Virus record (IMG/VR): IMGVR_UViG_3300030098_001091
Source of the DNA: an uncultured virus (IMG/VR IMGVR_UViG_3300030098_001091)
Lineage: Duplodnaviria; Heunggongvirae; Uroviricota; Caudoviricetes
DNA length: 64,000 bases
Reading direction: 5' to 3' (one strand)
Position 1 is the first letter of the stretch, and each line of letters begins with the position of its first letter. Shown piece after piece: positions 27,685-50,510 of this stretch. Position numbers and translations under genes: made by a program. The notes beneath the pieces were generated by a model. That model made no database searches. It was not told the DNA's origin and was given only the letters and a program-made list of their open reading frames with translations.

Positions 27685-27714
27685 AAAGCCCACCCAAGAC
27701 CGTTAAGTCTTGGG
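27685..27714 (-). repeat. Hairpin repeat copy 1 (terminator-like or hairpin promoter)
   Basis: AAAGCCCACCCAAGACCGTTAAGTCTTGGG; 29/30 identical to 27929-27958. Confidence 0.75.
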
Positions 27715-27723
27715 CAGGTGAGA

Positions 27724-27930: not shown

Positions 27931-27958
27931 AGCCCACCCAAGACCGTTAAGCCTTGGG
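27929..27958 (-). repeat. Hairpin repeat copy 2 (terminator-like or hairpin promoter)
   Basis: AAAGCCCACCCAAGACCGTTAAGCCTTGGG; followed on the minus strand by TTTGTTCTTTT. Confidence 0.75.
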
Positions 27959-27982
27959 TGGGTGGAACCCTTCCCGGTTCGT

Positions 27983-28593: not shown

Positions 28594-31500
28594 CTATGCT
28601 AATTGATCGCTGTCTGGTATCTCCAAAGCTGGGGCCTGCTGGCCTATTTGCCCCACAACGTCCGGAGAAGCCGTCTCAGCCGTTTCGGGCTCTGGGGTAG
28701 GCTGGGGTGCTTCCTGTTCCTGAACGGGCTGTACGGGGCTCTCCGGGCCTCTGACGGGCTGCGGAGGTTCTGCCTGAGGTCTTCCCATATCGAAGCCTCT
28801 TTGGGCCTGCTCTGCCATCAGGTGCTGTTGCCAGTTAGGATGCCTGAGTCCCATCTCTTCGATTATCATTCTCATAGCCTCATCCGTAGTATGATCTAAA
28901 CTATGGGTTGGGTGTCTAAACATTCCTCCCGCAAGGTTAGGACTACCGGTTCGTCTGGAGGAACGAGAGGCTGGGGAATCGGTAAGAACGTGCAGGGGAA
29001 GGCGGACCATGGCATCTCCAATAAAGGGCATGTTTCGCATAGCATTGATCCAATCCGTATTCTCTAATTCTCCACCAATCATTTTTGTAACAAAAGCCCT
29101 CAGGTTATTAAGCATTGACATACCACCAGCCGCTGAAATGAAGGCTCCCGGAGTTCGGGAAGCTGGGTTTTCCACAGTCAACCCGGTAAGGAATTCACCA
29201 ATCATATTCAAGTATCGACCCATGATAGGAAGTCTAAAGCCGTAAGTCATAAAGAATGCTGTTGGACTATCTTCCAGATCTTCCATAATGTCTTCCCATT
29301 CGTCTCCACTAGCCATTCTTAAGAGCATCATATATGTCAGATCCAAAGCACACATGGTAATCAGTCTTACACCCATAGCAGTCAAGCCAAGGTGATTGGC
29401 GTTTCTCATAATGAGCTGACTATTGAATAACATACCATATCGTCTATAGATTTCAAACAGCCTTTCAGATCTAGCATCATCTGTATTAATGTCAAAGGCA
29501 TTGGGGTTCACAAGGATCTCATTTACAAAAGCCTTTTCCATAATCTTAAGACCACCAATAACATCTAAGCTTTTGTGGTATTCTTCTCGATTGGCTAAAG
29601 TATCTGTTTTGCTGAGATAGTTTCTAATCTGATTTGGACTGTAAGTTCCTTTTTCCTTCTTATTATTAAAATCATTAAGTAGGGATGTCAAGCGTGGATA
29701 AGCTGATGCGTCTAAGAAGCCAGCTCTTAACATGTAGGTAATAACTCTACCGTACTTTCGGGGATTAATGCCAGCATCTTTCATATGCTTTTCTAAAGCC
29801 ATGGGATCTGGCAGCACTAAATCAGACTGCTTAAATTTCCCCTCCATAAGCTGACCCTGTTCGTCTAAAGCAAAGTTGACGTAACCATCTCGTTCTTTTT
29901 TGATGGTGAGTTTAGATTGCTTGGGGTCATTCAGGATCGCTACTAACTTAGTAAGTTTCCCAGACTGCATTAATTCAAATACAGACTTGCGGAAAATCTG
30001 AGCACGGCTTGTAGCCATAGCTCCCATAATCCATTGCGAGGGCCTCATCATTTGGTTTCCCCATCCGTCAATAAAGTTAGCGGTTTTACCCAATGCTTTA
30101 TTACCAGAGCTTGCTTGTAATAGCGGTCTGTCATAGTCAGGGACATGAGCCTGAGTCATAACTCCAATTAAATCTAACAGATCTCTAGAGGTTTCTTTAA
30201 ACTCTTCAGTACCTAATGCTGCTGGACCTAAAGCGGTTAATGCTTTAAAGAATCCTCTCCATCCTTGAGGACCAAGTGCAGATGTTAAAGTATTCATTGC
30301 ATACTCTACGGTTATAGTAGCTAACGACAGATTACCACCGAATGCAATCTTAGTAATACCCGGAGCAATCTCAACAAAGAAGTCTTTCCAAGGATCATGC
30401 GGCTGTTGTGTTTGCCGGATGCCTCGAATATACTTATACTTATCCCGGAGAGTGGTGATTGAATCGTTAATGTTTTCTGCGGCAATGCGATCTATTTGAG
30501 TGCCATCCATGTTTCGCCAAGACGCGTCGGTATTGGCTTCTGCAAACAGATTTAACGCATCTCCAATAGTACCGTAGATTTCAAAGTTATCGATCATTAA
30601 CATAAGCTCAGTAACTTCGTCTGCGATTCCTTTCATATAATCGTTAATCAGAGATGTTGGATGTGTTACTATATTATCTAAAATAGTGGAATCAAGTGTA
30701 GCAGCAACCGCAACAGATGGAACAAACCAAGCATCGTTGGGTAAATACATTTGCATTCCTGCTCGGTTAATGAGATTGTACACATGAACATCAATCGGAT
30801 TTTTTCTTCTGAATTTAAAAGGAGCAACCTTGTCTTCGGGGGCCATCCAGCCAATTGCTTGTGCATGTCTATCAGACTTACCGGGTTTGTACAGTTTCAT
30901 TAATCTCTGCTCGAAATCTCCAGATCGATTGCTACCTGTTATGACATCGTTTTGACCACGACGCATAGCTGAAACATCTACTCCTTCTTGACTCAAATGA
31001 GCCCAAGCAATGTTTCCTCTAGTCAGCTGTCTCATAAAGGAATGGAGTCCTTCTTGAGTTTCTCTAATAGCTTTCAGTTCACCGTCTCTCAATCGACGCA
31101 TAAGATTTGTTTGGAAATCAGCAACAGTTTTTTGAGCTTCGGTTTCATTAAGAACCTTATTCCCTTTTGGCTTAAGGCCTTGCCATCCAAGTTCAATGTT
31201 CTGCTCATCCGAATGGTAAGCGATGTACTCAATCAAAACCTTTCTAAAGTTTGGATCTAAAGCTTCCATTTCTTTTACCATACTAGCTGAATCACCAAAG
31301 TCTGGAAGATAACCTAAAGCAAATAAACTTACTGGATCAATATAATCACTGTCCCTAAGCTTTGCAATGAACATCTCGCTTAGGCTATCTCTAAGTGATT
31401 CAAGACCTTCAGCAGAATGTTCGTTAAATTTCCAACCAACTTTGTTTGTTGCGGCATTACCCCAATCTCCAATAGATTTCTTTCTATCAATAAGAACATT

Positions 31501-34500
31501 CATAAAGTCATTTAAATCATCAGCAATAGATTGCATATGACCTAAGACTTTATTTTGTTTTTCCGCAGAAAGATTATCAAACAGAACACGGGCCGGTCCC
31601 TTGATAGCATCCTTAAGATTTACGTTATCAGAATCAACAGCTAACAAAATTGCAAGGTGTATTCCCTTTAACTGCTCTCCTCTTGATTCGGATATCTTAC
31701 CCGCAACTAAAGCTCTTACTCCACCAAAGATTTTTTCAATCTCATCATAAGTAGAGTGTATACTATTTTGGTGGGTTCGAAGCTTTTCCATGTTTCTACT
31801 TAGTGAGGCTGTTCCTTGAAGATTGGTCCAGCTACCCATTGTCGAAACAATCTGATCATCTAATAGCGCGGTAAACCAGACCGGAATAATATGCATAGCA
31901 TTATAAGTAGCACCAGCACCAGAAGGTCCAACTTGGCCAGTAACAATAAATCGCTTAAGGGTATTATGATCTCCGGTTCCTAAGACCTTATCCAAGATCT
32001 TATCAAACCATTTTGTAAAGGCATTTGCTTTGGCTCCAGCTTTTCGAGAAACCTGATTACCAAAACCTCGACTAGTACCTGTAGAGTCTTTAAACTTTTC
32101 AATAAGTACTTGCATTGCCGCAAGACGTTCATCTGTACTTAATTCCAGATCACCTTCTCTAACTCCTTGCCTCATAGCTTTAATGTCTAAAACTATTTTT
32201 TCCTTTTGATCCGGTCCTATTTTCTCAATAGAGCGCCCGTACTTTTTGTATAAGCGTTGCTTTGCTGAAAAGAATTGATACCTAGTTAAGCCAGTTTCTA
32301 GTATAGTATCATGTTCAGCCGTTAATCCTTGACGAACCATAGTAGAATCAACATCAGGTCTAATAATATTGTGAAGGACATTGTGTCTTTCTACTTGTTC
32401 AGGAGAAAGATTATCAAGTCCCTGTTCAGATAAACTATCGTATTCTTTAACCATTGCTTCAAATACTGCATCGTCATATCTAAATGATTCGTCTACACCC
32501 TTAGTTGAGTGAGTTTCTGTATACTCAGGACCAAACTCAAAGGATTGCCTCAGTCTTTGCTCTGGTGCTGGGGCCAGTAAATGTGTTTGAGAATCAAGAT
32601 CAAATCCAAACAAGCGATTCATCAAGCGGTTTACATCAGGATTTTGTAACTCTTCAGACCAAATAAAACCAATCTTCTCAAAGATTCTTCGCATATAACC
32701 AAAGACTTTACTTAACCAAGGCATAGCATCCTTCAAGACGCTATGTTCTTCTACGGTAAAGTCTTCTTTCAATAAAGTATTAAAATCACCGAGAAGATAG
32801 AAAGACCCAAGAGATGCAATAAACTCATCTACGTTTTCCATCGCATACTTTACTTCAGCTTTAGTATCTGCTGTTTCAATTCCACCATGCCAAGCTGTAT
32901 ATAACTTAGTCATTAAGCTATGGCCCTTCTGATTCATTAAAGCTTCAAATCGGTGGTAGGCAGCTGGGTCATTCATAATAAATTCCATTGCGCCTTGGTG
33001 TGCTAATTCGTGAGCAAGGATCAATACTGGGCTAAGTCTGTCATTGGCTCGACGTGCCTGTCCACCAATTGAAATAGTTCTACGACCAGTTCGTGTATCG
33101 GTATCGATTCTACCGCCACGAAGTTCTTTCATGAATTCTAATTTAAGATCCTGCAAGCCCATTGGGTTGAATAGGTACATATTAACAATAAGCTTTCGCA
33201 TCATGCGAGCCTGTCTCTCATCTATATTACCTTCGTCTACCATGTCTTGGATATTTTGATTAAGTTCTCTGATCGGTCTGAACCCTGTCTCATTAGCCAT
33301 CTCTTCCATTCGTTCGTACTTACGATGGAAGTTTCTCTTTCGGATCTTGGCTCTGCTTCTTATTGAGAAAGCTCTTTGTTCAACTTCAAGAGGATTAATA
33401 TCTCCCAATGTATCCAGCTCCATTTTACCTGAGGGTATATTTAACTGATCATTCACGGCAGATTCTATTGCTTGCTTCGCTAGATACTCTAAGGCAGCTT
33501 CTCCAGTTTTTCCATAGAGATTTTCAATCCGAGTCAAATGGTGGCTAGGAATAGATTCTAAATTCCACAGGTTTTTAGACCTAAGCCATGATATAAAGGC
33601 GCGCTCGGTTGAGGTGGCGTGTCTAATATGTCCAGCCTCTACACTATCTCCCAGATGGTTTAACGCAGCTGTATTTCCTCTATAGGAGACTGATGTACTT
33701 TCCCCTTGTTTAGTAATAATGTCTACAGTTTCCAACTGGTTTATAGTAATCGGATCTTTCAATTCCGCAACCGAAGCTGTGGCATCTCCCTCTTGATTAC
33801 CGTATTCAACCGCTACGGGTATCACTGCCAATTTATCAGCACGGACACCAAACTCATTCCATAATATCATATTATAAAGCGATAGCTGCTTAGACCACTC
33901 TGATTTCTTTTCTTCTCGGATCACGGTTTCTCCGGTATCCGTTTGTTTCTTAGTCTTTACATCGTAGATAGTAATTTCACCGGTTGTTCTATTTCTAGTT
34001 AAGACATCAAACTCACCCCGAAGACCAATCTTTGTATCCATTATCATTACTTTATCGACCATAATCTCATCCGTTTCCAAGATCTTCTTCTTGAGGTCAA
34101 GCATCTGGTCTATAAACTTATTAAACTTTTCTTCAGTATCGATATAAGGTTTGTCTCGTTCTGTTCTATAGGATTCCCAATTAGGTCGTTCTTCAGATCT
34201 GAAGACATCTCTAACCAAGTTGTCAATATTCTCTCCGACAGTAAATGCATTTTGAAGGACAGGATCGTTATTCATTTCTTGAATTGTTTTATCTAATTCA
34301 TTAATCTTAAACTCTAAAGACTTAACAGAAGAATCTGTTTCCGGGATTCCTGATTGGATAAGTTCATCTCTATCTTTTCTAAGTTTAGTTAAAAGATATC
34401 TAGAGTTGGTACGAATAGACTGGGTAACGCTTGTGGCAGGTCCAGAATATGCTTTAAATTCCTCTTGCCTATTTTTAATCCGATCAAAGATAGTTTCTCT

Positions 34501-37500
34501 ACTACTAGCTTCGGGACCAATATCAGACATACTTTCGGGAGAAGTAACCGAATCTTCGTCTATAAGTTGCATCCACTCGAAGGCAAAAGATCTAGCGTGC
34601 CAATAGAATTGGTTATCTCTAATAAACCCATTCTCACTCATATGTCCACTTATTTCATTATGAAGATGCATCATCTCCATACTAATCCTACTAAGCTCTT
34701 CAGCCGAAACTGTTTTCTTTTCCTTACCGATCTCAATAACCCGACCTTCAATCTGAACAGCATAAGTATCCGGATCTAAAAACTGTTGCCAATTGTGATC
34801 CCCGTACCAAGACATTGGGTTTCCTGCATTTTGGAATATAAGTCTAGATCCTAAAGCTATTGCTTTTGCCATAGCAAAACTACTGTCCTTATCTGTTTTT
34901 CTGGCCGCATCAATAATGCCTTGTACCTTATTAATTAAATCATTCTGATAATCATTAATATGTTCGGTTCGCAATCTATTCATTAACTCAACAAGTGGAG
35001 ACAGATGTGCTTCTTTCCATGTACTCCCAAAACCTAAGTTGTTGGTTTCCGATACGCCTCTAGAGTATGAGTCTAAATCTAAAATCTCCATAGGCTTTCC
35101 AGAGATTTCTTTTTTATCTCGAACAAGATATCGGGAATGTTTGCCTGCGTCCATCCTATCTTCAACGGCTGTCATTACTTTTAATAAAGCCTCGCTATCA
35201 ACAACAGCCTTTTCAATCTGAGGCTGCATACTAAATCCTAATGCTTTTTGCATTCTACGGGCATGGGGTTCAGCGTAAACCATTTTCTGATTCTCTGCAT
35301 CCCACTTAGTTCTAATTGCTTTGTTTGTACGACCAGCATTTTCCATATCAACATGTACTTGACTATTACTAATTGTAGCAAACATCAGTAAGACAGATTG
35401 TTTTGTTAACGCAATCTTGAGATTACCCTCAATCTCAGATGGGGTACGAACCAGTATTCCACCCAATGCTCTAGCAAAAGCATTACGAGCAACCATAGAT
35501 TTTATTTGGTCACTTCGAACCGTAGTTCCAGATACATCGGTTTCAATAATAGCCTTTAGTTTGACAAGCATAGTTCCATCTTTATCCTTAGACATAATCT
35601 CTTCTTGCCTTAAATCAAACTCCCACTGTCTCGTTGTAGTCATTTCTTCGAGGAACATCTCAACCATTCGGGTCATATCCTCAGGAAGGATAGCATCCCA
35701 TGTGTTGGGGTTATTAGCCATTAGTTTATATGCACTTCGTACATCTGCTGGACCGTCCCAGTTTTTGAGATACTTAGAAACCACAGCCTCATAGTTTTTT
35801 CCGATAATAAAACGCATAAAGTCTGTGGCATGGTAGACACCAGATTCTAGTACCAATTCCTGAAATTTAATCTTACCTTCTACTTTACCATTGACAGTAA
35901 TAGCTAAGTTTTCTTGCGGTGCTGCTCCCATCTCCTCGTATACTTTAAGCTCCTTGTGAATATCTGTGGGCATAAGAAGATACCCTTCTTTAGTTTCGGG
36001 ATTATAAATCTTAGTTAAAGATTCCAATACCGATTCAGCCTCTTGAAGCTTACCAGCAATTGCCAGTTGATTGATGTCCTTGAATAGATCTAAACGTCCC
36101 CGTACCTTCTTACGAACATTTCGGGAAATCCTAGAAAGTAAATCTAATTCGGACAACCATTTATTTCTTGCCATGATATAATAATTTCTGGCTCTTCCGG
36201 GATTCTTTTGGAGAATATCCCTCTCAACATTACGAGGTCGCCAACCTTCTCTAGCAAAGATAATAGCTTCTCTTTGGAGCCTAGCTGTTTCAGCTACTAG
36301 GAAGAAGTATGGAACAAGAGCTGAGTTTTGATTAAGAAGATCTTCATGTCCGTGTTGTCTTGCGTATGTATAAGCAATATTATGAATCTCTGCTGCTCTC
36401 CAAGCTACTCTTGTGTTTGGATCGTTCTTATAAATATCCCAAAAATCTAATGCAATAGTTTCCGCGTTTGGTAGGGTATCTCTTTTCCATGGAGCGTGGT
36501 ATCCAAAAGCTTCGTGCTTGCTTTCCTTCCCGCCCAAGATAGGATCGTCTTCTGTCATGTTCTCTCGTTTAAAGTTATCAAGATATCCAATTCTCTTTTC
36601 GATTTTATCTTGTACCATTTTTCGATGTATTCGGTTAATGCCTCTATTAAAGAATGCGGCCTTCTTGTGCAAAGGCTTATTAAACATGAATCCCTGCTGT
36701 TCCGCAGTCCTTAATGGAATAAAGCTTCGGTCATCATCGAAGTGACGTGAGTCATGCATTTCGTGTATGTTTACTCTGTTCCATCCACCAGCGTGTTCTC
36801 TAGCCATTTCTTTAGTAAGCCAACCAAAATTCTTTCCATAGAATTCTCTTAGAGTAGGATTCTGAGCAATCATCTGTTCATACTCAGATCGAGAATCAAA
36901 TGTCTCGTGGTTACTCTTACTTGATTCATACATGTCTTCCATTACATTTAAAAGCATCGCTGGTCTATTATCTTCTTGGGTATAGTTAGGGAAGACTTCC
37001 TTAGGCAAAGTCTCAAACTGTGAGTACCAAAGGAACTCGTTTAGGTCCATTAAATCTGACAGGTGCTGTCGAACATCCTTTGGATCCATTGTTTGATACG
37101 GGTTATCATAACCATCAAGCATACCAAGACTACTGACATTATCGCCCGCACTTAAATATTCTTCTAAAGCTACTAGGAACTTAGCTGGGTCGCCGGTTGG
37201 GTCTTTGCCCTTCATAAACTCCATAAAATCTTTATACTGTTTTCCATCCTTCATAGGATCTGGAAGTACTGCAACTCTACTAAAGGAAGTTGCTGTGTGA
37301 TTTGGAATATGACCACCTACTGCCAGACCTCTATGGTGATCTGCTGTTGGACCAATGCGACCATAAAGGAACACATTTCCAAGACCGCTTAACTCGTCTT
37401 CAGTCCACTCAACATTAAAAGCTTTGGCAACATCTTTGGCCCGATCCATATTAATACGGAAGTGGGAAGCCGTCATCATATTCAAGCCTCGGAAGAAAGC

Positions 37501-40500
37501 AAGTTCCTTGTGGTTGAGGTCGTTTTCGGGGAGAAAGATCTGATGGATCTCATTCCATCGGGCATCATTCATATCCATGTTACCATCTTCTTCCCACTCA
37601 CGGAATTTGGCTTCGGCTTTTGCAAGCATCGGTGCATAGTTTTCTTCGACCGTTTCAATCTTTTGGTTGCTATCTCTAGCAATAATCCTAAGGCGATCTT
37701 TGATAGTTCTTCTAAGATCACTAAGATTATACAATGATTCAGATACAGATCGGTCATCCTCGGGTAGTGCTTCGTCTGTTCTTAATTCAGCTGCCTCGGG
37801 CTGTGTAAACGGAATAGTATGGGTTTCGCCTGTATCTCTATCTATAACTACCACATCAGGAAGTGTTCTTTCTACACCCGGCTTATCTTGACGAATTTCT
37901 CTAGAAACTTGCCTAGCCCGTTCTGCCTTATTAATAAAATCAAGAACTCCTCTTGTCTGGAACTCTTCACTTCGATTGATTGATAAGAATCCGGTCATTG
38001 CATCTTTCATTCCTTGATCGGTAGCGATGACTTGATCTAAGATTACACGGTCATTGAAATCCTGACGCTCGTATAAAAGTTCCCCGAGTGCGATTATATT
38101 ATCCGAAGTTACTGTAACTCCCATTTGCTCCGCTAAAGCCTTGACAGCAAGAGTACCCTTACCAAAAGGTTCGTTAATAAACTCTTGTCTAAAGTTGTCA
38201 AGACCACCACCATACATACGACGCATAACTGGGGGCTTAAATACATCTCGTAATTTACTAAGTACTGCCTTTTCTTCCGCACTTATATCTTCTCTCTTCT
38301 TCATAGCCTCAAAGTCTTTAGTACTTTTAATATCATACTTCCCAAGAAGATCGAAAGCTGCTTTAAGTGGACCCATTCTTTGAACTACTAAAGCATTTCC
38401 ATTAGCAGAAATTGCGTCTGCCGCAGCTAAAGCACCTTTAATATAGAAGTCAGATTCTGAAATTGAAGATCTCTTAGAATTAAGAATGGTTGTTCTTAGC
38501 CCATACTTTACTAAAGACTTATAGATGGTATTTGCTTCTTTATCTATATTGCCATTGTCATCCATCACCTCGATTGGCTGATTACCATAAGGGGTATTTG
38601 CAATATGCTTCCAATTATCTGAACCCGTAGTAGTCATAACCGCTAAAGTATTCAAGTGGTTTTCATGAATACCGCTATTAACTCTGTCATAGTAATTTGT
38701 CCTGTCATATAAGAACTCATTAACTTCATCCAAAGTAATAGTTCTATCACCAATTACAACTTCTCCGTTGACAGTTACATCAAGGAATTGCTGTGGATTC
38801 ATGTTAAACTCGTCCATAAGCCATTTGTTAGTGGACTCTATACTTGCTTCAATAATAGACGATGCCAAAGGAGCCATCTGTTCTGAAGCAAAAGCTTGGG
38901 CAATAACATCACCCGCGTAACCACGAGGAACAATAACCTCACTACCGGGACTAATAAATGGAATGTTTAGCTGATTTGCAAAGTCTCTATTAAAACGAAT
39001 CCGACTATCTCTGGCTCCAGCTAAACTATCTTGGACAAACATCTGAGCAAGGTTTGGCAAGTCCATCATAAAATGCATTGCGAGATCAATAGCTTTTTCC
39101 CTGTTCAACAAGCCTTGCTCTAAGCTACCGCCTACCCATCGGGGAAAGATCATAAACTTAGTCATATCTTCAGATGGATCTGGGGTTCCTTCTTTGCGGA
39201 ACTTTTCCCGCCACTTAGCAGCAGCGTCCCGTTGTTTTTTGCCCCAGTTTTTAACCGTAGGTCTGTTTAAATCATCATCCCATTCAATATGTCTTAAAAC
39301 TTCTTTTTGTCTCTGATCAGTTTGCCACCTCATAATAATACGCTTTAAATCAAACGATCCTAAGGGGGCTGAGTGATTAATTCTTCCAGCAGCAGCAACG
39401 AATTCAGGATTGCCCTTTCTATCCATATCAGACTCTGTACCAATTAATCCGTGCTCTCCAGTAACAAGCTTGTCAGCTTGCACTGTGATTTTCTCAAAGG
39501 CAAAGTAATCTACAATAGCTCTACCAACTAAAGTGGCAGGAGCCCAATCAATAGTACCGTCACCGAACGAAGATAAAGTTACAACCCCAGAATCGCTATC
39601 ATCAGCAAAGACATCTAAGCTTTGCATAATTTTATTAAACGTCCTATCAATATTAATAGGCTCTCCGGGTACATACTCCACACCTAGTTTTTCCATGATC
39701 TTTCTAGCACGGGGATGAGCTCTACCACCCTCCATAAATAACTGCTCTTCTAATCTTTCTCTAATAGACTGCTCAACAGTTTGTGTATATGCTTCTCTAC
39801 TTCTGGTAACTTGGGATCTATCGAAGAAACCAGTTTCCTCTCGAACATCTAAGACAAACCCAATCGTCCTTGCTTGGGATTTATTCCAATCCCTAGAGGC
39901 ATCTTCTAAATCCTTTAATAATTCCACCGCCAATTCGAAATTTGAAATCGAGTCGGGCTTAGTTTCACTATCTAACTCTGACCTCATAATCTCCCCAATA
40001 AGATTATCTAAAGTCTGAGCTCTAGTTCCTTCTAACTTTCTATACACCCTACCTCGATAAAGATCAACGATATCCATTACCTTTTCCAGATTATAACGCA
40101 ATGATCCAGCGTTAATATGTCTTTCACCAATTTCCATCTCAAGACCAGCACCATCAAGAGCTGGCTCAAACAGCACAAAGGGGGCCAATCCAAGCTGCCA
40201 GAAATATTCAGGCATTGTTGAATATACTAATGCAGCGTGTACACTACCGTCGCTGTTTCTTGCAGTCGACTGAAGAAGAGCCTTAAGTCTGGAATTCCAT
40301 TCAGCCCAAGCTTCGGCTTCTTTGTTTATGTCTCTTCTGATTTTTTTAAGAGCTTCTCCCGGATTACTCTCATTCAATAGGTTATCCCAGTTTGTGTAGG
40401 GAAGGTTATCTAAATCAGCATCAGTAAGCTCAAGGAGCTGGGATTTGAGATGTTCTTGTAGATTTGCAGGAGCAACAAAAGACGTAAGAGATCCTAGTTG

Positions 40501-43500
40501 CATATCCTTAAGAAGTTTATTAATTAATGATTTTGTTTCCCCAACAATACTTCTAGCTTTATCTATAGGAATTGTTCTATTCAACCTTTTTGTTTTTTCT
40601 GTGTGGTCTAAAGTATTATGATCAGCAACTTTCTTCTTCTTCCATTTAGAAATATCAGGAAGCAGTTGCATTAATTCCTTAACAGTAATATTACCCTCTG
40701 CTTCTAAAGCATCCAATCTTTGCTCTGCACCCGCTATAACAATTTCAAAGTGCTTAGTGTCCCGTTGAATTTGATCAATAAGACCACGATGTGAAACGAC
40801 AGAGCTAAATGATACAACAGCCGACTGCTTAGCTCGTTCTTCTGAAAGTTTAGACAACTCCCTCTTATAATCTCTATGGACTTTTTCAAACTTCTTAACA
40901 GAGGCTGTATGATTTTTGTAGTCATCCGTTTCCTTAAAGTCCTGTTCTACTTTAGTGGCAAGAGAATTGAAACTATTAATTAATTTTGTAAATGAAGACC
41001 CCCTCTTTGACGATCCACCTGTCAATTTAGTCTCCGGATCTCCTTTTAATATTCTATTAATTTCATTCTTAATTGTCTGTCTAATCTTCAGGTGGGTTGT
41101 TCCAGACTCTACTAATTCGAGTAGGCTTTCTAGAGCGGAGATAACCCCCGGCATGTTATCTAAATCTTCAATTTTAATTGTTTTCTTAATCTTATCTGGC
41201 ATCGGCTTTCCGGTTTCTGGATCTATTTCCATAAACGGAACAAGACGCAATGCACTTATCGGCCTTACCAGTGCCAGATATTGGTCTACCTCAGCACCCC
41301 CTGCTTCTTGAAAAGCTTTATAGGTTTCCAGAAGTCGCTTTCTTAATTCTATAACCTCATCACCTAAAGCTCTAACGACAGGATCAGGATTAAGCTGGGC
41401 TAGGAAAGCCTGCTTATCTATATTTAATTTCTCAAGCAGATCTTTAATTCTTCTTTTTGCTTCTTTGAAATCCGCAATCTTTTCGCGATGTAGCTTGAGC
41501 TTATCTTTTAACTCTCTTCTGCGTTTTAAGAGATCTTCTGAAACGGCATCCCTACCTTTGGTTTCTCTAGTCCTTCTAATTTGACCAAGAACCTCAGCCC
41601 TTTCGGTTTCTGTTTCAGCCATCTCCTCTGTTTCACGTCTCGAATCTTCATCGATTTGATTTGATACTTCTTGAGCTGTCTGTTCAGCATCAACGCTCTG
41701 TGTTACAACATCGTTTGTTGGAGAACCTTCCTGTACCGCTTCTCCTGTAGTGGGAATTCCCGCAGCGGTAGCTTCTGCACGAACCTGATTAATAGTCTTA
41801 ATAGCCTCGGCATCAACTTCGGTCTGTTTAGTCATTAACTCATGAGCATAATCTAAACCAGCATCAAACCGTTCTTTTTCAGTCGCACTATCCCAATCAA
41901 CTTTAGACCCATCCTTACGAGTAATCTGAGAATACTTCTTCTTTGTTCCACTTAATATATCAGGAGGTAAAAGTCTAGTCCACTGCTGTTTATCTTTAAT
42001 GTTCTGCACATATTGGGCAGAAGTAATGTGTGTGCCTGTTCTTGCGGATTCAGCAGCAGCTGCATTTTCCATATCTGAGATATGTTTGTTCCATCCCCGC
42101 ATTTGGGTAATAACCCTATCGACATCAGGACCATGCTTTGCGGTTATTTTGTCGTGAAAGGTTCCTTGCAAGGTTGATAAAGTATGCTCTAAAAACTGAG
42201 CTGGAGATAACGAAAACTCTCCGTGAATTTGTAAAACCTCGTTTGCTGTTTCTATTAATAAATCATGAAAGTCCGAATCATTTAACCCAGATAAATGTCT
42301 AATAGAAGACAGCCCAAGACTAAGCCTGTCAGATGCTCCTTCCCCAGCACCTCGGTTTATATCCGTTATAGCAGCTTGACCCAAGTCTAAGTTAAGTCTA
42401 CTAGCTCCGGACACACCATCTACTGGAGAAGCATTTAAGGTTCGATTAATAATCCTATTTAATTCCCCACGCTTACGAGTAATTTCTCTAGTCCGTTTAA
42501 CATAGTCGGGGTGACTTACGGTTTGCCAAAAGTCTACTGTTTGGTTTATCCAGCCACCAGTTCCTTTTGCCTTAGCGTTATACCACTTCTTCGCTGTCCA
42601 AGCTATAGGCAGAGTACCTGCACCCATAGCGGTACCAAAAACAGGGTTAATAACAGGAGATAACAGAGCTTCAAGTATTCCCTCTTCCTTAACCTTGCCC
42701 CAGTCAAAACCATCCTGCAATCCCATATTCTGTTTTCGCCATTGGTTACCGATTTCTGCCAAAGACCCAGTAATAGCACCCTCAGCCATATCCGAAACAC
42801 GATTCAGTGGCCACCTAATTATCCGACCTGCTTCTCTAAAATCCTTACCTGTTGCTTTTTTAATTCCCTTGGCTAGTAAGTGAGGCCCCACTCTTTCTGG
42901 AAGATAGTTTACCAATCTCCTAGTCATATCACCAACAGCCGCTAGCCTTTCACTAATTCCAGCTTTACCTGTAATACTTCTAGCATTCTCCATTCTGTGC
43001 AATACCTGCATGAATCTTTTCATCCGCAAAGCTTGCTTAGCAGTCTTAGCAGCTAAAACGGTAGATGTAAGAGCAGCTCCAGCAATGACCCCAACACCTG
43101 TTACAGATAGACCGGCACTAATAGCCATACTTGCAACTAAATCAGGATCGTTAATAATACCATTTATAGTTAGGTTTGATGCAAAATTCCACAACTGATC
43201 CATATCAGTAGCAGTTGATACCCAGTTTCCATAAGCCTGAGCAATCTCCATCTGTCTGGATGTGTTGGAAATAGTTCTAAAGAAATCATAAGGATTCTTT
43301 GTATCCTTAACTATTTCTTTTAATGCCTCTTCCCCACCTAACTGCATCGCAAAGAAATTGTAATTATCAAAATCTTTTTTCCTAAATTCTACTAATGCTT
43401 GGCTAGGTTTAAACGCATCTCCAAAATCGAGATTTAATAAGTCCTCAACTCCGCTAGAAAAAGAATTAGCAACAGGTAAAGTTTGCTTATCAAAACCTGA

Positions 43501-43932
43501 AGAGAACATAGAGATTGCGTTCCACCTGCTAAAATCTTTTGTTTCCCCTATTATTTCTCTAGCTCTAGATCCAACATCTAGCATCCCCCCGCCATCAAAC
43601 TTCAGTAAGTATGACAGGTCACTAGCTAAATCCTGTTTAAAAGCTACGTTATCTGTAGTCCAACCTCCCGCATAATCTCTACTCATCGCCTCGCTTTGGC
43701 TTCTCGCGAAAGGCATAAAACCAGTCATCTTTCGGTTTTGAGAAATCTCTTCCCCTCTATTCATATAGTAGCCGCCTACGTCTGGAGAGGATAACGACTC
43801 CGCGTGTTGCGGGCCCCACTCTAAAGAAGCCCAATGCTTCATATACTCCTTAGCGCGATCTGCATTCTGTCGAGATATATCTAAAGCATCTGGCTGCCAC
43901 GGGAGCGGATTACCAAAAAATTCTAAGGTCAT
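28594..43932 (-). CDS. Giant internal virion protein (5112 aa) with putative virion RNA polymerase, PD-(D/E)XK nuclease and zincin domains
   Basis: Last of the internal-virion genes. Contains YYDRVNSGIHE, SDFY and RDVFKPPVMRRMYGGG (RNAP-like), GLRGEFD..IYDVKT..QLSLY (nuclease) and ILAHELAH (zincin). Confidence 0.75.
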   Translation of the reverse strand: MTLEFFGNPLPWQPDALDISRQNADRAKEYMKHWASLEWGPQHAESLSSPDVGGYYMNRGEEISQNRKMTGFMPFARSQSEAMSRDYAGGWTTDNVAFKQDLASDLSYLLKFDGGGMLDVGSRAREIIGETKDFSRWNAISMFSSGFDKQTLPVANSFSSGVEDLLNLDFGDAFKPSQALVEFRKKDFDNYNFFAMQLGGEEALKEIVKDTKNPYDFFRTISNTSRQMEIAQAYGNWVSTATDMDQLWNFASNLTINGIINDPDLVASMAISAGLSVTGVGVIAGAALTSTVLAAKTAKQALRMKRFMQVLHRMENARSITGKAGISERLAAVGDMTRRLVNYLPERVGPHLLAKGIKKATGKDFREAGRIIRWPLNRVSDMAEGAITGSLAEIGNQWRKQNMGLQDGFDWGKVKEEGILEALLSPVINPVFGTAMGAGTLPIAWTAKKWYNAKAKGTGGWINQTVDFWQTVSHPDYVKRTREITRKRGELNRIINRTLNASPVDGVSGASRLNLDLGQAAITDINRGAGEGASDRLSLGLSSIRHLSGLNDSDFHDLLIETANEVLQIHGEFSLSPAQFLEHTLSTLQGTFHDKITAKHGPDVDRVITQMRGWNKHISDMENAAAAESARTGTHITSAQYVQNIKDKQQWTRLLPPDILSGTKKKYSQITRKDGSKVDWDSATEKERFDAGLDYAHELMTKQTEVDAEAIKTINQVRAEATAAGIPTTGEAVQEGSPTNDVVTQSVDAEQTAQEVSNQIDEDSRRETEEMAETETERAEVLGQIRRTRETKGRDAVSEDLLKRRRELKDKLKLHREKIADFKEAKRRIKDLLEKLNIDKQAFLAQLNPDPVVRALGDEVIELRKRLLETYKAFQEAGGAEVDQYLALVRPISALRLVPFMEIDPETGKPMPDKIKKTIKIEDLDNMPGVISALESLLELVESGTTHLKIRQTIKNEINRILKGDPETKLTGGSSKRGSSFTKLINSFNSLATKVEQDFKETDDYKNHTASVKKFEKVHRDYKRELSKLSEERAKQSAVVSFSSVVSHRGLIDQIQRDTKHFEIVIAGAEQRLDALEAEGNITVKELMQLLPDISKWKKKKVADHNTLDHTEKTKRLNRTIPIDKARSIVGETKSLINKLLKDMQLGSLTSFVAPANLQEHLKSQLLELTDADLDNLPYTNWDNLLNESNPGEALKKIRRDINKEAEAWAEWNSRLKALLQSTARNSDGSVHAALVYSTMPEYFWQLGLAPFVLFEPALDGAGLEMEIGERHINAGSLRYNLEKVMDIVDLYRGRVYRKLEGTRAQTLDNLIGEIMRSELDSETKPDSISNFELAVELLKDLEDASRDWNKSQARTIGFVLDVREETGFFDRSQVTRSREAYTQTVEQSIRERLEEQLFMEGGRAHPRARKIMEKLGVEYVPGEPINIDRTFNKIMQSLDVFADDSDSGVVTLSSFGDGTIDWAPATLVGRAIVDYFAFEKITVQADKLVTGEHGLIGTESDMDRKGNPEFVAAAGRINHSAPLGSFDLKRIIMRWQTDQRQKEVLRHIEWDDDLNRPTVKNWGKKQRDAAAKWREKFRKEGTPDPSEDMTKFMIFPRWVGGSLEQGLLNREKAIDLAMHFMMDLPNLAQMFVQDSLAGARDSRIRFNRDFANQLNIPFISPGSEVIVPRGYAGDVIAQAFASEQMAPLASSIIEASIESTNKWLMDEFNMNPQQFLDVTVNGEVVIGDRTITLDEVNEFLYDRTNYYDRVNSGIHENHLNTLAVMTTTGSDNWKHIANTPYGNQPIEVMDDNGNIDKEANTIYKSLVKYGLRTTILNSKRSSISESDFYIKGALAAADAISANGNALVVQRMGPLKAAFDLLGKYDIKSTKDFEAMKKREDISAEEKAVLSKLRDVFKPPVMRRMYGGGLDNFRQEFINEPFGKGTLAVKALAEQMGVTVTSDNIIALGELLYERQDFNDRVILDQVIATDQGMKDAMTGFLSINRSEEFQTRGVLDFINKAERARQVSREIRQDKPGVERTLPDVVVIDRDTGETHTIPFTQPEAAELRTDEALPEDDRSVSESLYNLSDLRRTIKDRLRIIARDSNQKIETVEENYAPMLAKAEAKFREWEEDGNMDMNDARWNEIHQIFLPENDLNHKELAFFRGLNMMTASHFRINMDRAKDVAKAFNVEWTEDELSGLGNVFLYGRIGPTADHHRGLAVGGHIPNHTATSFSRVAVLPDPMKDGKQYKDFMEFMKGKDPTGDPAKFLVALEEYLSAGDNVSSLGMLDGYDNPYQTMDPKDVRQHLSDLMDLNEFLWYSQFETLPKEVFPNYTQEDNRPAMLLNVMEDMYESSKSNHETFDSRSEYEQMIAQNPTLREFYGKNFGWLTKEMAREHAGGWNRVNIHEMHDSRHFDDDRSFIPLRTAEQQGFMFNKPLHKKAAFFNRGINRIHRKMVQDKIEKRIGYLDNFKRENMTEDDPILGGKESKHEAFGYHAPWKRDTLPNAETIALDFWDIYKNDPNTRVAWRAAEIHNIAYTYARQHGHEDLLNQNSALVPYFFLVAETARLQREAIIFAREGWRPRNVERDILQKNPGRARNYYIMARNKWLSELDLLSRISRNVRKKVRGRLDLFKDINQLAIAGKLQEAESVLESLTKIYNPETKEGYLLMPTDIHKELKVYEEMGAAPQENLAITVNGKVEGKIKFQELVLESGVYHATDFMRFIIGKNYEAVVSKYLKNWDGPADVRSAYKLMANNPNTWDAILPEDMTRMVEMFLEEMTTTRQWEFDLRQEEIMSKDKDGTMLVKLKAIIETDVSGTTVRSDQIKSMVARNAFARALGGILVRTPSEIEGNLKIALTKQSVLLMFATISNSQVHVDMENAGRTNKAIRTKWDAENQKMVYAEPHARRMQKALGFSMQPQIEKAVVDSEALLKVMTAVEDRMDAGKHSRYLVRDKKEISGKPMEILDLDSYSRGVSETNNLGFGSTWKEAHLSPLVELMNRLRTEHINDYQNDLINKVQGIIDAARKTDKDSSFAMAKAIALGSRLIFQNAGNPMSWYGDHNWQQFLDPDTYAVQIEGRVIEIGKEKKTVSAEELSRISMEMMHLHNEISGHMSENGFIRDNQFYWHARSFAFEWMQLIDEDSVTSPESMSDIGPEASSRETIFDRIKNRQEEFKAYSGPATSVTQSIRTNSRYLLTKLRKDRDELIQSGIPETDSSVKSLEFKINELDKTIQEMNNDPVLQNAFTVGENIDNLVRDVFRSEERPNWESYRTERDKPYIDTEEKFNKFIDQMLDLKKKILETDEIMVDKVMIMDTKIGLRGEFDVLTRNRTTGEITIYDVKTKKQTDTGETVIREEKKSEWSKQLSLYNMILWNEFGVRADKLAVIPVAVEYGNQEGDATASVAELKDPITINQLETVDIITKQGESTSVSYRGNTAALNHLGDSVEAGHIRHATSTERAFISWLRSKNLWNLESIPSHHLTRIENLYGKTGEAALEYLAKQAIESAVNDQLNIPSGKMELDTLGDINPLEVEQRAFSIRSRAKIRKRNFHRKYERMEEMANETGFRPIRELNQNIQDMVDEGNIDERQARMMRKLIVNMYLFNPMGLQDLKLEFMKELRGGRIDTDTRTGRRTISIGGQARRANDRLSPVLILAHELAHQGAMEFIMNDPAAYHRFEALMNQKGHSLMTKLYTAWHGGIETADTKAEVKYAMENVDEFIASLGSFYLLGDFNTLLKEDFTVEEHSVLKDAMPWLSKVFGYMRRIFEKIGFIWSEELQNPDVNRLMNRLFGFDLDSQTHLLAPAPEQRLRQSFEFGPEYTETHSTKGVDESFRYDDAVFEAMVKEYDSLSEQGLDNLSPEQVERHNVLHNIIRPDVDSTMVRQGLTAEHDTILETGLTRYQFFSAKQRLYKKYGRSIEKIGPDQKEKIVLDIKAMRQGVREGDLELSTDERLAAMQVLIEKFKDSTGTSRGFGNQVSRKAGAKANAFTKWFDKILDKVLGTGDHNTLKRFIVTGQVGPSGAGATYNAMHIIPVWFTALLDDQIVSTMGSWTNLQGTASLSRNMEKLRTHQNSIHSTYDEIEKIFGGVRALVAGKISESRGEQLKGIHLAILLAVDSDNVNLKDAIKGPARVLFDNLSAEKQNKVLGHMQSIADDLNDFMNVLIDRKKSIGDWGNAATNKVGWKFNEHSAEGLESLRDSLSEMFIAKLRDSDYIDPVSLFALGYLPDFGDSASMVKEMEALDPNFRKVLIEYIAYHSDEQNIELGWQGLKPKGNKVLNETEAQKTVADFQTNLMRRLRDGELKAIRETQEGLHSFMRQLTRGNIAWAHLSQEGVDVSAMRRGQNDVITGSNRSGDFEQRLMKLYKPGKSDRHAQAIGWMAPEDKVAPFKFRRKNPIDVHVYNLINRAGMQMYLPNDAWFVPSVAVAATLDSTILDNIVTHPTSLINDYMKGIADEVTELMLMIDNFEIYGTIGDALNLFAEANTDASWRNMDGTQIDRIAAENINDSITTLRDKYKYIRGIRQTQQPHDPWKDFFVEIAPGITKIAFGGNLSLATITVEYAMNTLTSALGPQGWRGFFKALTALGPAALGTEEFKETSRDLLDLIGVMTQAHVPDYDRPLLQASSGNKALGKTANFIDGWGNQMMRPSQWIMGAMATSRAQIFRKSVFELMQSGKLTKLVAILNDPKQSKLTIKKERDGYVNFALDEQGQLMEGKFKQSDLVLPDPMALEKHMKDAGINPRKYGRVITYMLRAGFLDASAYPRLTSLLNDFNNKKEKGTYSPNQIRNYLSKTDTLANREEYHKSLDVIGGLKIMEKAFVNEILVNPNAFDINTDDARSERLFEIYRRYGMLFNSQLIMRNANHLGLTAMGVRLITMCALDLTYMMLLRMASGDEWEDIMEDLEDSPTAFFMTYGFRLPIMGRYLNMIGEFLTGLTVENPASRTPGAFISAAGGMSMLNNLRAFVTKMIGGELENTDWINAMRNMPFIGDAMVRLPLHVLTDSPASRSSRRTGSPNLAGGMFRHPTHSLDHTTDEAMRMIIEEMGLRHPNWQQHLMAEQAQRGFDMGRPQAEPPQPVRGPESPVQPVQEQEAPQPTPEPETAETASPDVVGQIGQQAPALEIPDSDQLA

Positions 43933-43948: not shown

Positions 43949-46900
43949 TCAGTACTGGGCAGTATTGCCTGCTCTTCTTTGTTTAGTCCAGTCAAGACCA
44001 ACGGTTCCAATAGCTAATCCCTGCTCCTGTGGGGAGGCCGAGGTGCCTGCTTCTCTCATGAGTCTAATTTCTACAGCAGCATCGCTGGCTGGTTTACCAG
44101 AATCAGGGGTAACATACTGGGGATAATAAAATACCACCACATCAACTAGATTATAAGGTTCTAGTTCAGCACTTGGGGTGTACATAGCTTCGTGTCTCTG
44201 CGGTATGGGTGGGGTAAGAAAGAACTGAAATTCCCCAATCTCAGAAAATCCCGGATAATCACCACTGGTAGCTAATCTATGAATAGCATTAACCAGAAGA
44301 CGGCCATGATCTAGTTTTAAAGCTTTAGCAAAAGCTGTGGGATTATCTCTTCTAAATCGACTGTAATCAATGATAACACTACGCAAAGCTTGTCTGAAAT
44401 TAGATTCAAATAGTCCAGCGTCTTGCTTGCTAGCAGCATGAAGTCTTCCAAATAAGCTTCCTCTTTTACTTAAATCTATAGTCTTTGTAATAGCGTTATC
44501 AGCATCAGATACCTTAGTTGAAACAGGATCACCAATGGTGGTTATATGGCCCTGTCTCTGAAGTGTGGTAAATTGGTCTTTATGATTAAAGGGAGTATCC
44601 TGTCCTACAAACGAATCCGGGTTTCTATCAAAAGCATCCTGTAACCCATTCCTATCAGGAATTAATCGCAGCCTGTTATCATCTCCCGGTAGAGATACAG
44701 CACCACTACCCTTAATGCTTGTTACGTTCATTCCTCTTAGTACAAGACTTGGCTCTATTGGTCCGTCTATAACAGTAGTTAAAACTTCTACCGCAGTCCT
44801 AGCCTCTGGGTGTTCACGCAGTAATCGAGTCATTCCTCTTATCACGCCTAATTCTAACCACTCCCAATCTTCGCTAGTCGTACTCCACATACTCTCTTCG
44901 TGCCCGAAATCTCCGATCTCCCATTCCAAGGGGTTACCTTTTTTCTCTTTGGGAAGATCAATATTATTCTCATCAATCCATTGTATCATACCCGGAGTAA
45001 TATATCCCGCTTTCCATAACGCTTGGAAATCCGCAAGACATTTTTCCTGCCTATCTTTTAACTGAGCTAGATCTGTAGCCCTATCGTAAAGCAATGGACT
45101 ACTATAATCTGACGGTTGATGAATTACAATCCCCATCTTACCAAGCTTATCAATAACGTCAATCCTTTTTTTATTCTCCTCAGCTTCCATTGAATCAATC
45201 CACGCACCTTCTCTTTGTAAATCTGATAACCCCGGCGTATCAGGTAGAGTCGATACGGATGTAAGAGCGTCTATCTGAAATCTAGTTATTTGATTAATAG
45301 GTTCTCCGCCGTTTAAAATAGTAGCTAACCCACTAAATATAGTTCTATGGGCATTTGAAAAACTTTGTAGGTGCGAAGCAAAATTTTGAATTGCTGTAGT
45401 CGGATCCTTTTTTAAACCCATAACAAAAGCATTGTAAGGCTCGTGTGAATTCATTAAGAATTTACTAGTAATAGCGAACGCGTCTGCTCTTTCTCTAGAG
45501 ATACCGTGCTGAGAAAGCATATGAAGTCTGCGATCAAAGCTACCCGGACCTTCGGTTGGATCAGTAAGATATCTCATAGTAGTCCACGCAACAAACATAG
45601 GCAGCAAGTCAGCTTCCTCTCCTCGTTCTACCTTATCCTGAATATACTGCGGATCTAAGTTTTGTAAGTTGCTTTGCATGTGTCCAATAAGCTGGCCTAA
45701 CATCCGATCTGGAACTACCTCCCCCTGCGCATTAACCCTAGGCGAATTACCAGAGAGTTCCATTAAGGTTAAGACACTAGCCAGATGCCGTTGAGGATGT
45801 GTTTGTAAGGCATCAAGAGGGGCTAGTGAAAAAGGAATCGCCGAAGAGGATGGCATAGGTGGAAGAAGGGTCCATTCATCTGCACCTTCGGGAAGAGAGA
45901 TACCCTCTGGATGTAGTGCGTGGAAATGTTTAGAGTATATATCTTGAGCATGTGACCTAGCCTCACCCCAGATTCGCATACCTTCTTCTGTCTCATATGC
46001 TTTATCGGTGCTGGTATTTCTGTCTAGGTTCCAAATAATTGAAACAAAATCTGTACCTTCCTTAGGATCAGCCGGGTCGGTTATTCCACGTCTTGTACTA
46101 TCTAGATTACGTCTCATTTCTCCCAAGTGTCTCTCTAAACTAGACGTACTTGTTCCATCATCGATTTGGTCCTTAAATGCATCGAACGCCGTATTCCACG
46201 TAGTTAAATAAGCGTGTTGCTCAGATAAGGTATATTGATCTGGATTAAATATTACCCCAAAGATAAAAGATTGTGCCTCTTGGAATGTCTTAAAGTTCTG
46301 TCCCTTTATAGAAAAATTCATAGATCGTCTCATGTTTTCTTCAAAGACATTAACATTAAGTTGACCTTGCCCGTAATTAGCGTCCGGATCTAACATTGCT
46401 GGCCCAGCTATAAGAGCATCCGATAAATCAGCTTCCCGTGTATTGCTCATCTCAGGTCCATATAATTGTGCTGACGCTGCTGACACTGCCGGAGAATCGA
46501 ATGACATAGGAGAAAGCCAAGGCCAATGGATCCCAGTAAAGATTGAGGTAGTGTTAGATAACTTCTTAACAGCTGATTGGAAGGCCTCTGTTATAACTTG
46601 TTCCTGATCACTATCGTTTATAGACCCTATGATCATATCTCCCATCGCCATAAAAGCTGAGGGAATAAGACCATGCTCTACTACTGAGCTTAGTCCTTCT
46701 TTTATTAATTCATTCCCCCGTCTCATTCCTCTTCCCATAGCACTATAAGCACCCTCGGTTACCACGTCATAATATATATCGTAAAGTTCTTGCCATTCTT
46801 CTTCTGGTAAGAAAGAATAAATAGCTTCTGCCCAATTAAAGTCAATATTTTCTGGGGTAATTGTAACAGTGGCAACCGGAACGTCAGATAAAGGTGCTCG

Positions 46901-50499: not shown

Positions 50500-50510
50500 A
50501 AGAGTTCTCC

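Follow-up and report, generated by a model that had tools for sequence, protein, structure and literature searches.

A stretch of 64,000 nucleotides from an uncultured virus of the Caudoviricetes (IMG/VR record IMGVR_UViG_3300030098_001091), referred to here as the window, carries an open reading frame (ORF) for a giant protein of 5112 amino acids (aa). With little more than even confidence, its sequence features suggest that this protein holds a very divergent single-subunit RNA polymerase (ssRNAP)-like module of the T7/N4 type within an ejected polyvalent protein, a candidate for a new lineage of virion RNA polymerases (vRNAPs). An earlier sequence-only reading had proposed a vRNAP-like domain in this ORF on the basis of four short strings, all of which were found within the ORF where it had placed them. 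That proposal can be retained in part: the residues of motif A, of the DxY element and of motif B are invariant in the family, the profile alignment to known polymerases is collinear and a feature search of ESM-Atlas points to the same enzymes, but no library or profile match is significant, the motif C aspartate varies and a T/DxxGR motif could not be located.

The window is most of a ~65-70-kb genome of an uncultured marine podophage, transcribed from the minus strand. The giant gene and the part of its product that is conserved among relatives are located as follows.

28594..43932, minus strand: giant ORF P0001, 5112 aa (ORF list and translation).
34753..40335, minus strand: conserved family core, aa ~1200-3060 (23 of the 26 invariant positions of the 16-sequence alignment).

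When 1.84 billion representative proteins were searched exhaustively with HMMER, 35 matches were returned at E up to 1e-3, and 15 of these are giants of 2554-5694 aa with 22-30% identity. Two closer relatives are known, one at 58% identity from the protein search and one at 41% found as a locus. Scans of viral and metagenome collections yielded four distinct relatives each, and the homologous-protein searches gave two proteins (one being the query's own cluster), none, and then two new ones. The relatives reside on contigs of 61-80 kb, and the complete 70,195-bp record G002 also has an 819-aa T7-type RNA polymerase (RNAP). None of the giants bears a name other than 'hypothetical protein' in the sources checked.

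The conservation counts given here were taken from a full-length alignment of 16 giants that are 22-60% identical. Only 26 of the 5112 positions are invariant, and 21 of the 26 fall within aa 1358-2488. The invariant set includes D1749, D1828, R1895, K1899 and Y1907, and the sole invariant Lys and the sole invariant Tyr of the entire protein are K1899 and Y1907; four invariant Asp and two invariant Glu were also counted in the core region. Nowhere else in the protein is the constraint stricter than on the residues of motif A, DxY and motif B.

38662..38694, minus strand: motif A-like YYDRVNSGIHE, aa 1747-1757 (family consensus DRxxSG..E).
38443..38454, minus strand: DxY element SDFY, aa 1827-1830 (D1828 in 16/16, Y1830 in 14/16).
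38203..38250, minus strand: motif B-like RDVFKPPVMRRMYGGG (Rx3Kx7Y), aa 1895-1910 (R1895, K1899 and Y1907 each in 16/16).

These elements agree with T7-type ssRNAPs (PF00940) in their order (motif A, DxY, motif B) and in their key residues. In the motif A-like string D1749 is kept in 16/16 sequences, R1750 in 14/16, S1753 in 15/16 and G1754 in 11/16; the expected form is DGxx[NS]G, but the giants have R where G follows D. The family form at 1828 is D[FLYH]Y, and known RNAPs carry the element between motifs A and B as D[ILV]Y in T7-like and D[LM]Y in N4-like enzymes. Motif B had been called a textbook Rx3Kx7YG: R, K, Y and their exact spacing hold throughout, but the G directly after Y is kept in only 3/16 giants, a point against the polymerase reading; G stands at Y+2 in 12/16 and at Y+3 in 14/16. 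The proline at K+2 (P1901) is kept in 14/16, and the N4-like sequence RGIAKNPLTITIYGSG also has P there, while K+4 is occupied by M in 12 and by L in 4 of the 16, comparable to M635 of T7 and to the phage's own RNAP. If the core is a polymerase, D1749 (DRxxSG) would be the motif A metal ligand, D1828-x-Y1830 would be the DxY element, and R1895, K1899, M1903 and Y1907 would form the nucleoside triphosphate (NTP)-binding O-helix of motif B.

The patterns are rare by chance. Rx3Kx7Y occurs once in P0001, at aa 1895. In 2000 shuffles, Rx3Kx7YG was expected 0.032 times per protein and Dx3SG[ILVM][QH] 0.018 times, against one observed occurrence of each. With the invariant R, K and Y placed randomly on residues of these three types, 0/200,000 draws from the whole protein and 2/200,000 from the core only produced an invariant Rx3Kx7Y, under a null that ignores the clustering of conserved sites. 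Lack of conservation of motif B among homologues had been named beforehand as an outcome that would speak against the polymerase; R1895, K1899 and Y1907 are invariant in the 16 homologues, and therefore motif B conservation gives no refutation.

For direct comparison with known polymerases we used N4 gp50, seven N4-like mini-vRNAP regions, T7 gene 1 and four other T7-like RNAPs; the T7 landmarks (D421-R425, D537, D569/Y571, R627/K631/Y639-G640 and H811-D812) were confirmed in the data. The top hhalign match of the giants to a merged T7+N4 profile (P 0.021) is collinear and pairs D1749 with T7 D537, DFY with DIY and motif B with motif B. The corresponding P was 0.037 with 22 family members and 0.010 once the family of a 652-aa mini-RNAP, encoded by a neighbouring gene described below, joined the profile; the controls gave P 0.7 for the N-terminal part, 0.24 for the C-terminal part and 0.21 for the reversed core. 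The same mini-RNAP family was tried as a bridge to the giant core and rejected (P 0.68). When full-length giants were aligned with full-length N4 gp50, the best real local match (P 0.23) joined aa 1814-1916 to N4 1593-1684, spanning DFY to motif B on one side and DLY to motif B on the other.

Position-specific scoring matrices (PSSMs) were built solely from 8 T7-like and 8 N4-like RNAPs and averaged over the aligned giant family. Motif B ranked first of 4008 at aa 1895, scoring 8.67 against -2.30 for the next best position (mean -17.5, standard deviation 3.2), an 11-bit outlier. The DxY matrix placed aa 1828 second among 4019 columns, and the motif A matrix placed aa 1749 sixth among 4012, the significance of all blocks other than motif B being judged only from the rank lists. 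The earlier assignment of SDFY to the DxY element is borne out by the invariant D1828, by this rank and by its hhalign alignment to DIY/DLY. The assignment of motif A stands as regards the invariant D1749 and its pairing with T7 D537, but is weakened by the arginine in place of glycine and by the sixth rank. An ESM-Atlas feature search with aa 1601-2400 placed PF00940 clusters (0.88, 0.87, 0.87) and N4 vRNAP-domain clusters (0.86) at the top, and the top family, ssRNAP, was the one predicted in advance.

Rx3Kx7Y is common to family A DNA polymerases and ssRNAPs, and no promoter-recognition elements were identified; both observations are compatible with a Pol A-type nucleotidyl transferase acting on another substrate, such as a DNA polymerase or an end-repair or priming enzyme delivered with the genome. 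We regard this as highly improbable. Motif A resembles the ssRNAP form Dx3[SN]G and not that of DNA polymerase I, DxY is present as in T7-like and N4-like RNAPs, and the M or L at K+4 agrees with T7 RNAP, DNA polymerase I having F there. Additionally, the ESM-Atlas matches are to RNA_pol families and not to DNA_pol_A, and the phage has a family A DNA polymerase of its own.

Two sets of results weigh against a polymerase in the core, those of the similarity searches and those on motif C and T/DxxGR. Significant sequence or profile similarity to the PF00940 or N4 vRNAP families, one of the marks of an ssRNAP, was not found. Pfam searched at E up to 10 returned no RNAP family in 8/8 members tested; in P0001 it returned nothing for aa 1-2500 and, beyond, only a PD-(D/E)XK nuclease. 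PHROGs, NCBIfam and PADLOC contained no polymerase match to the giant, their sole addition being the nuclease. No part of the protein (including aa 1-1400, 2501-3700 and 3501-5112) was matched by phmmer among all PDB sequences, and PDB profile searches of the giant family retrieved no RNAP. The lowest E of a BLASTP comparison between the giant and the phage's own RNAP was 0.38, and a tblastn search of 50,697 phage records gave no match. With the hidden Markov model of the family, reversed decoys scored as well as the N4-like and T7-like RNAPs. The hhalign comparison of the core gave P 0.13 with the N4-like family and P 0.34 with the T7-like family, where the positive control with the same 8-sequence alignments (N4 versus T7) gave Prob 94% and E 8.6e-8, and the merged-profile matches of the giants reached only P 0.01-0.04; Prob was <=4% in all these comparisons of the giants. 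Motif B is the only clear PSSM outlier, as the other blocks have near-equal competitors elsewhere. A MAST-like chain test on single sequences, using PSSMs from known RNAPs only and 200 shuffles per sequence, was not significant for any giant (the score was reached by 8/200 shuffles for P0001 and by 5-182/200 across the family); it recovered the expected triple in 1/16 sequences and motif B in 7/16. The ESM-Atlas scores lie below the tool's 0.9 line, and recognition that low is a lead only. The divergent 652-aa ssRNAP is detectable with these same tools and the giant is far weaker; moreover, the phage already encodes two ssRNAPs.

Such results are consistent with a core that is some other, unnamed enzymatic or structural module of the ejected polyvalent protein, in which the likeness to ssRNAPs would be convergent or due to chance, and the R/K/Y set and the Asp residues would serve other phosphate or nucleotide chemistry or a structural role in the ejectosome. 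We consider this possible, although rather unlikely. It is favoured by the lack of any significant library or profile match with tools that do detect N4 versus T7 and the 652-aa mini-RNAP, by the null chain test, by the lack of a T/DxxGR motif and of an invariant motif C Asp, and by equally weak matches to unrelated folds, namely subtilisin (E 0.087, aa ~1634-1724) and an Afp9/gp25-like fold (E 0.64-1.4, on the motif B stretch); these two and a TssE match (E 0.076) were judged to be chance. The vRNAP label has also been over-applied elsewhere, and easily so: in the available part of PMC10747016, giant cysteine-free podophage proteins receive it on no more than size and composition. Size and cysteine-free composition are not sufficient for the label. 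On the other side, the sole invariant K and Y of the protein lie exactly at Rx3Kx7Y, and an invariant Asp in Dx3[SN]G followed by DxY lies upstream of motif B in the ssRNAP order. The best hhalign matches fall on the motifs and strengthen as the profile broadens (from P 0.13 and 0.34 through 0.021 to 0.010), and ESM-Atlas independently ranks ssRNAP families first.

Three further segments of the core bear on motif C, on T/DxxGR and on the order of elements.

37108..37128, minus strand: LGMLDGY, weak candidate for motif C, aa 2269-2275 (motif C PSSM rank 2/4017 at 2273).
39025..39039, minus strand: FVQDS, an 'IHD'-type strand ending in D1635 (D1635 in 16/16; motif C PSSM rank 1/4017).
37258..37497, minus strand: block 3, FRGLN(2151)...IN, R2201...NxQG...R2219..P (top ranks of the QN and NPQ PSSMs).

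LGMLDGY had been offered as a candidate motif C by the sequence-only reading, and its PSSM rank agrees with that, but D2273 is not invariant (D in 13/16; E, Q and N once each) and the pattern is near chance. D2276 is D in 13/16, and at least one acidic residue is present at 2273 or 2276 in every sequence. The motif C-like pattern [HLVIM]D[GSAC][YFW] was observed three times with 1.49 expected from 2000 shuffles, which is not beyond chance, and therefore it carries no weight on its own. Among the putative catalytic D, K, Y and D for which a conservation check had been suggested, D1749, K1899 and Y1907 are kept in 16/16, but the second aspartate, D2273, is not. The strand preferred by the motif C PSSM, a hydrophobic '[IV][QH]D' segment in which the residue before D1635 is Q in 8 and H in 6 of the 16 sequences, does end in an invariant Asp, but this lies 114 aa upstream of D1749, a non-canonical place for motif C. 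Alignment by hhalign to the palm2 segment gave P 0.59 for motif C.

No T/DxxGR motif was found in the core: the PSSM for it is best at aa 3644 and ranks D1635 253/4018, and the hhalign placements are weak and mutually inconsistent (R1541 versus R2201). Block 3 resembles the 'AINxxQxTxWxIN' and T/DxxGR-NPQ segments of ssRNAPs but is located downstream of motif B. The QN PSSM ('AINxxQxTxWxIN') ranks the invariant N2151 first of 4007 and the NPQ PSSM ranks ~2209 first of 4010, and the hhalign matches of the two elements are not significant (P 0.37 and 0.18). If real, the QN and NPQ matches after motif B would mean a non-canonical element order. Block 3 alone (aa 2090-2500) yielded no RNAP signal in ESM-Atlas, with scores <=0.77. 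An internal duplication of the core was rejected, as aa 1200-2120 against 2121-3060 gave P 0.83, and a simple circular permutation does not fit, since a motif C candidate is missing between motif B and the QN-like block.

A core derived from an ssRNAP that no longer polymerises, and that serves as a DNA- or NTP-binding or scaffold part of the ejectosome, for example by gripping the leading DNA end, would agree with a motif C Asp kept in 13/16, a YG glycine kept in 3/16, the missing T/DxxGR and the presence of two other RNAP genes in the phage. We think such a relic improbable: the invariance of D1749, D1828, R1895, K1899 and Y1907 at only 22-27% overall identity would be unexpected in it, and the region also keeps the four invariant Asp and two invariant Glu.

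Whatever the core does, the genome map and composition bear on how the protein would be delivered. PHROGs assigned window genes to major capsid, tail tube A, tail tube B (1691 aa), fibre, spike, TerL and portal, and further to family A DNA polymerase, primase-helicase, ribonucleotide reductase (RNR) and an 814-aa T7-type RNAP; TerL is 36-40% identical to that of marine T7-like cyanophages, roseophages and pelagiphages. The gene order after TerL is 247-, 341-, 229- and 1385-aa ORFs and then the 5112-aa ORF, which occupies the gp13-gp16 position of the T7-type map.

43949..50538, minus strand: upstream cysteine-poor ORFs of 247, 341, 229 and 1385 aa (0, 0, 0 and 1 Cys).

These four ORFs encode probable partner ejection or internal proteins, to which Pfam and PHROGs assigned no family. 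Their order is the same in two relatives, L002 and L004, and an ORF of ~1350-1430 aa lies directly upstream of the giant gene in the window and in both relatives. The synteny of this small-medium-giant operon, with the giant last and largest, is kept across all three.

P0001 contains 1 Cys per 5112 aa, and 10/16 homologues have none, whereas Cys makes up 1.5-1.8% of the phage's RNAP, DNA polymerase, TerL and primase-helicase. The single Cys is aa 4861, not terminal, and that of the 1385-aa protein is aa 1023. One homologue, P0013 (2554 aa), stops just before the HExxH region and has its sole Cys as the final residue. N4 gp50 has 0 Cys in 3500 aa. The hallmark of a carrier, a cysteine-free giant encoded by the final gene of a small-medium-giant ejection operon, is present in P0001, and the product is probably an ejected internal virion protein (IVP) of the IVP-D/N4 gp50 type. 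The parallel drawn earlier with N4, in which the last and largest protein is the carrier, proved sound in its cysteine-free composition, in its place at the end of the operon and in the HExxH domain downstream of the core.

33802..34128, minus strand: PD-(D/E)XK nuclease insert, aa ~3269-3377 (PF12705 E 3.5e-5; phrog_298 exonuclease E 2.6e-5; PADLOC DruK E 0.005).
32533..33285, minus strand: HExxH...E zincin-like domain, aa ~3550-3800 (HELAH aa 3641-3645, E3703).
43048..43140, minus strand: the only strongly hydrophobic segment, aa 265-295 (hydropathy scan; conserved N-terminal region).

The nuclease region is occupied in only ~1/3 of the giant family and, judged by this, appears to be an accessory cargo domain. 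H3641, E3642, H3645 and E3703 are invariant in 14/14 full-length homologues, a signature that probably marks an active zincin-type metallopeptidase within the ejected protein. N4 gp50 carries HELVH at aa 2228, downstream of its RNAP, and the available part of PMC13434306 assigns its HExxH to the C1 domain directly after the RNAP; the hhalign comparison of the giant and N4 HExxH domains was not significant (P 0.07 over 23 columns). The N-terminal region of the giants also conserves the consensus NGIINDPDL..ASMAIS.

The resemblance to N4 gp50, whose mini-vRNAP comprises aa 998-2103 (PDB 2PO4/3C2P; PMC13434306 as far as available), goes beyond the cysteine-free composition and the last, largest gene of a small-medium-giant ejection operon. 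Both proteins have Dx3[SN]G, D[LF]Y and Rx3K-x-P-x5-Y with G at +2/+3 in mid-protein, a downstream HExxH domain and a large C-terminal part, and both phages have an additional small second RNAP. However, the giant shows no significant similarity to gp50 (family P 0.13; no tblastn or PDB match), is 1600 aa longer and has a conserved core of ~1850 aa against 1106. Unlike gp50, it has no TxxGR that could be found, an uncertain motif C Asp and a nuclease insert. The window phage is T7-like with its 814-aa T7-type RNAP, whereas N4 has no T7-type RNAP.

According to the available part of PMC4819975, an IVP-D homologue contains the N4 vRNAP, and IVPs carry cargo bound for the host cytoplasm. As described there, the T7 gp16/IVP-D family resembles the giant in standing at the end of the internal-protein gene set, in its large size and as a carrier of cytoplasm-bound cargo. 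The giant differs from T7 gp16 in having no PHROGs or Pfam IVP-D match, in being 4x larger and in lacking a detected lytic transglycosylase domain. An RNAP combined with a zincin peptidase is a known polyvalent-protein architecture, with N4-RNAP-like examples (Iyer et al. 2017, PMC5512222, as far as available). Like those proteins, the giant is a multi-domain protein, presumably delivered, in which RNAP-like, zincin-like metallopeptidase and nuclease parts are combined (the same part of PMC5512222); the nuclease, the HExxH...E and the core with polymerase-type motifs are all found in this one giant, in keeping with the several enzymatic domains that mark a polyvalent protein. Unlike in the polyvalent proteins described, the N4 RNAP profile does not recognise the RNAP-like module of the giant, and searches seeded with the N4 RNAP would therefore have missed the giant family. 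Compared with T7-type ssRNAPs, the giant gives no PF00940 match even at E 10 and P 0.34 by hhalign, and its QN/NPQ-like elements come after motif B instead of before motif A. Locally, FRGLN...IN of the giant is like the block LRGLN...VN of the phage's own RNAP.

In the mechanism we propose, the 5112-aa protein would be a polyvalent internal virion protein in the gp16/IVP-D position of a ~65-70-kb marine T7-like podophage. It would be packaged in the capsid and, along with the 229-aa and 1385-aa proteins, would be ejected into the host before the DNA. Its core (aa ~1200-3060) would hold a polymerase module of the single-subunit T7/N4 type, though an extremely divergent one. If it works as N4 gp50 does, the module would transcribe the first-entering DNA, including the gene of the 652-aa mini-RNAP, and early expression would thereby be independent of the host RNA polymerase. 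Processing or regulation of the giant protein would fall to the downstream HExxH...E domain, and the PD-(D/E)XK nuclease would be accessory cargo in part of the family. Of this picture, the gene structure, the family and its conservation pattern, the depletion of cysteine, the synteny and the correspondence of motifs are observed directly; packaging and ejection, the polymerase fold, catalysis and the choice of genes to be transcribed are inferred.

The other polymerase genes and the region beside the giant gene are located as follows.

25640..27598, minus strand: divergent mini-ssRNAP of 652 aa, encoded directly downstream of the giant gene (match to the merged ssRNAP profile by hhalign).
27684..27735 and 27928..27979, minus strand: two hairpin copies with loop TTAACG and 3' GGGCTTTG, between the giant and mini-RNAP genes.
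16105..18549, minus strand: the phage's own T7-type RNAP, 814 aa (phrog_414 E 3.9e-169).

The 814-aa RNAP shows the motifs DFRGR, DGKCNG, DLY, RNVTKRSTMCEAYG and IHDS and is <=27.8% identical to the RNAP of any cultured phage. The 652-aa ORF had no match in Pfam, PHROGs, PADLOC or PDB with HMMER. With two homologues included in its profile (L004:21639-23159 and L002:22238-23326, at the same location in these relatives; 25% identity, E 7e-16), it matched the merged ssRNAP profile by hhalign at Prob 88% and E 3e-6 over 437 columns. Its motifs are A ELDTEGSG, B KKIFSPKTYGSG and C GIHDAGG; at the T/DxxGR position it has ALRMYA and the L004 homologue DQNGRIYA. It contains 13 Cys, and its G+C content (0.52-0.53) is above that of the rest of the window. 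By profile and motifs it is clearly a mini-ssRNAP, previously unannotated, which brings the undoubted ssRNAP genes of the phage group to two. A small second RNAP beside a giant ejected protein mirrors the arrangement in N4, whose RNAPII consists of gp15 and gp16, encoded by early genes.

The 3' flank of the hairpins is conserved as GGGCTTT(C)G, and L002 also has two copies (21585-21620 and 22110-22145) with the same loop and flank and compensatory changes in the stem. They could be terminators of the late operon or specifically recognised hairpins. Because they follow small ORFs and one precedes a T-rich run, they are more probably terminators than N4-style promoters; the TTAACG-loop hairpin is one that we take to resemble the T7 Tphi terminator. 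Three small ORFs (111, 59 and 68 aa) lie at 27724-28583 on the minus strand between the giant and mini-RNAP genes. No family matched them, the 111- and 59-aa ORFs carry hydrophobic segments, and the three may encode lysis or membrane proteins.

At ~23950-25030 the window is mostly non-coding, with many palindromes and repeats (TACCCTAGGTA, GGTATAC, GGTCTATGGG) and an AT-rich sigma-70-like site; it is likely a regulatory region, an origin or a genome end. Three minus-strand 18-mers like TATAGGTGGAGTATAAAG, within a longer common consensus, occur at 5904-5921, 24814-24831 and 51578-51595, a number reached in 0/100 shuffles. One copy lies directly upstream of the RNR gene. These copies are candidate promoters for one phage RNAP. 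Three tRNA genes, Met(CAT), Leu(TAA) and Arg(TCT), are found at 13794-14126 on the minus strand.

A bolder proposal, which we offer tentatively and hold less probable than any reading of the core save the relic and the Pol A-type transferase, is a cascade of three polymerases that dispenses with the host RNAP. It would run from the divergent virion RNAP through the 652-aa mini-RNAP to the 814-aa RNAP for late genes, joining the N4 and T7 strategies and adding a third virion ssRNAP lineage. The virion RNAP of such a cascade may have a rearranged order of elements, with the QN, T/DxxGR and NPQ-like segments after motif B and the 'IHD' strand before motif A.

To our knowledge, virion-packaged single-subunit RNAPs come only from N4-like phages, and the virion RNAPs of crAss-like and jumbo phages are of the two-barrel type. 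A limited literature search turned up no account of a T7-like phage with such a module. Should the core prove not to be a polymerase, this family of ejected proteins would still have a strictly conserved D/D/D/D and R-K-Y set in need of explanation. If it is one, the injection of a T7/N4-type polymerase within a protein of the gp16 position would be older or more widespread than Schitoviridae, and the ssRNAP lineage concerned would be divergent enough for searches of Pfam, PHROGs and PDB to miss it. Such a lineage would be a source of new minimal or unusual polymerases for biotechnology. A T7-like phage with up to three genes of the ssRNAP type would, moreover, allow the evolution of the N4 and T7 transcription strategies to be compared directly.

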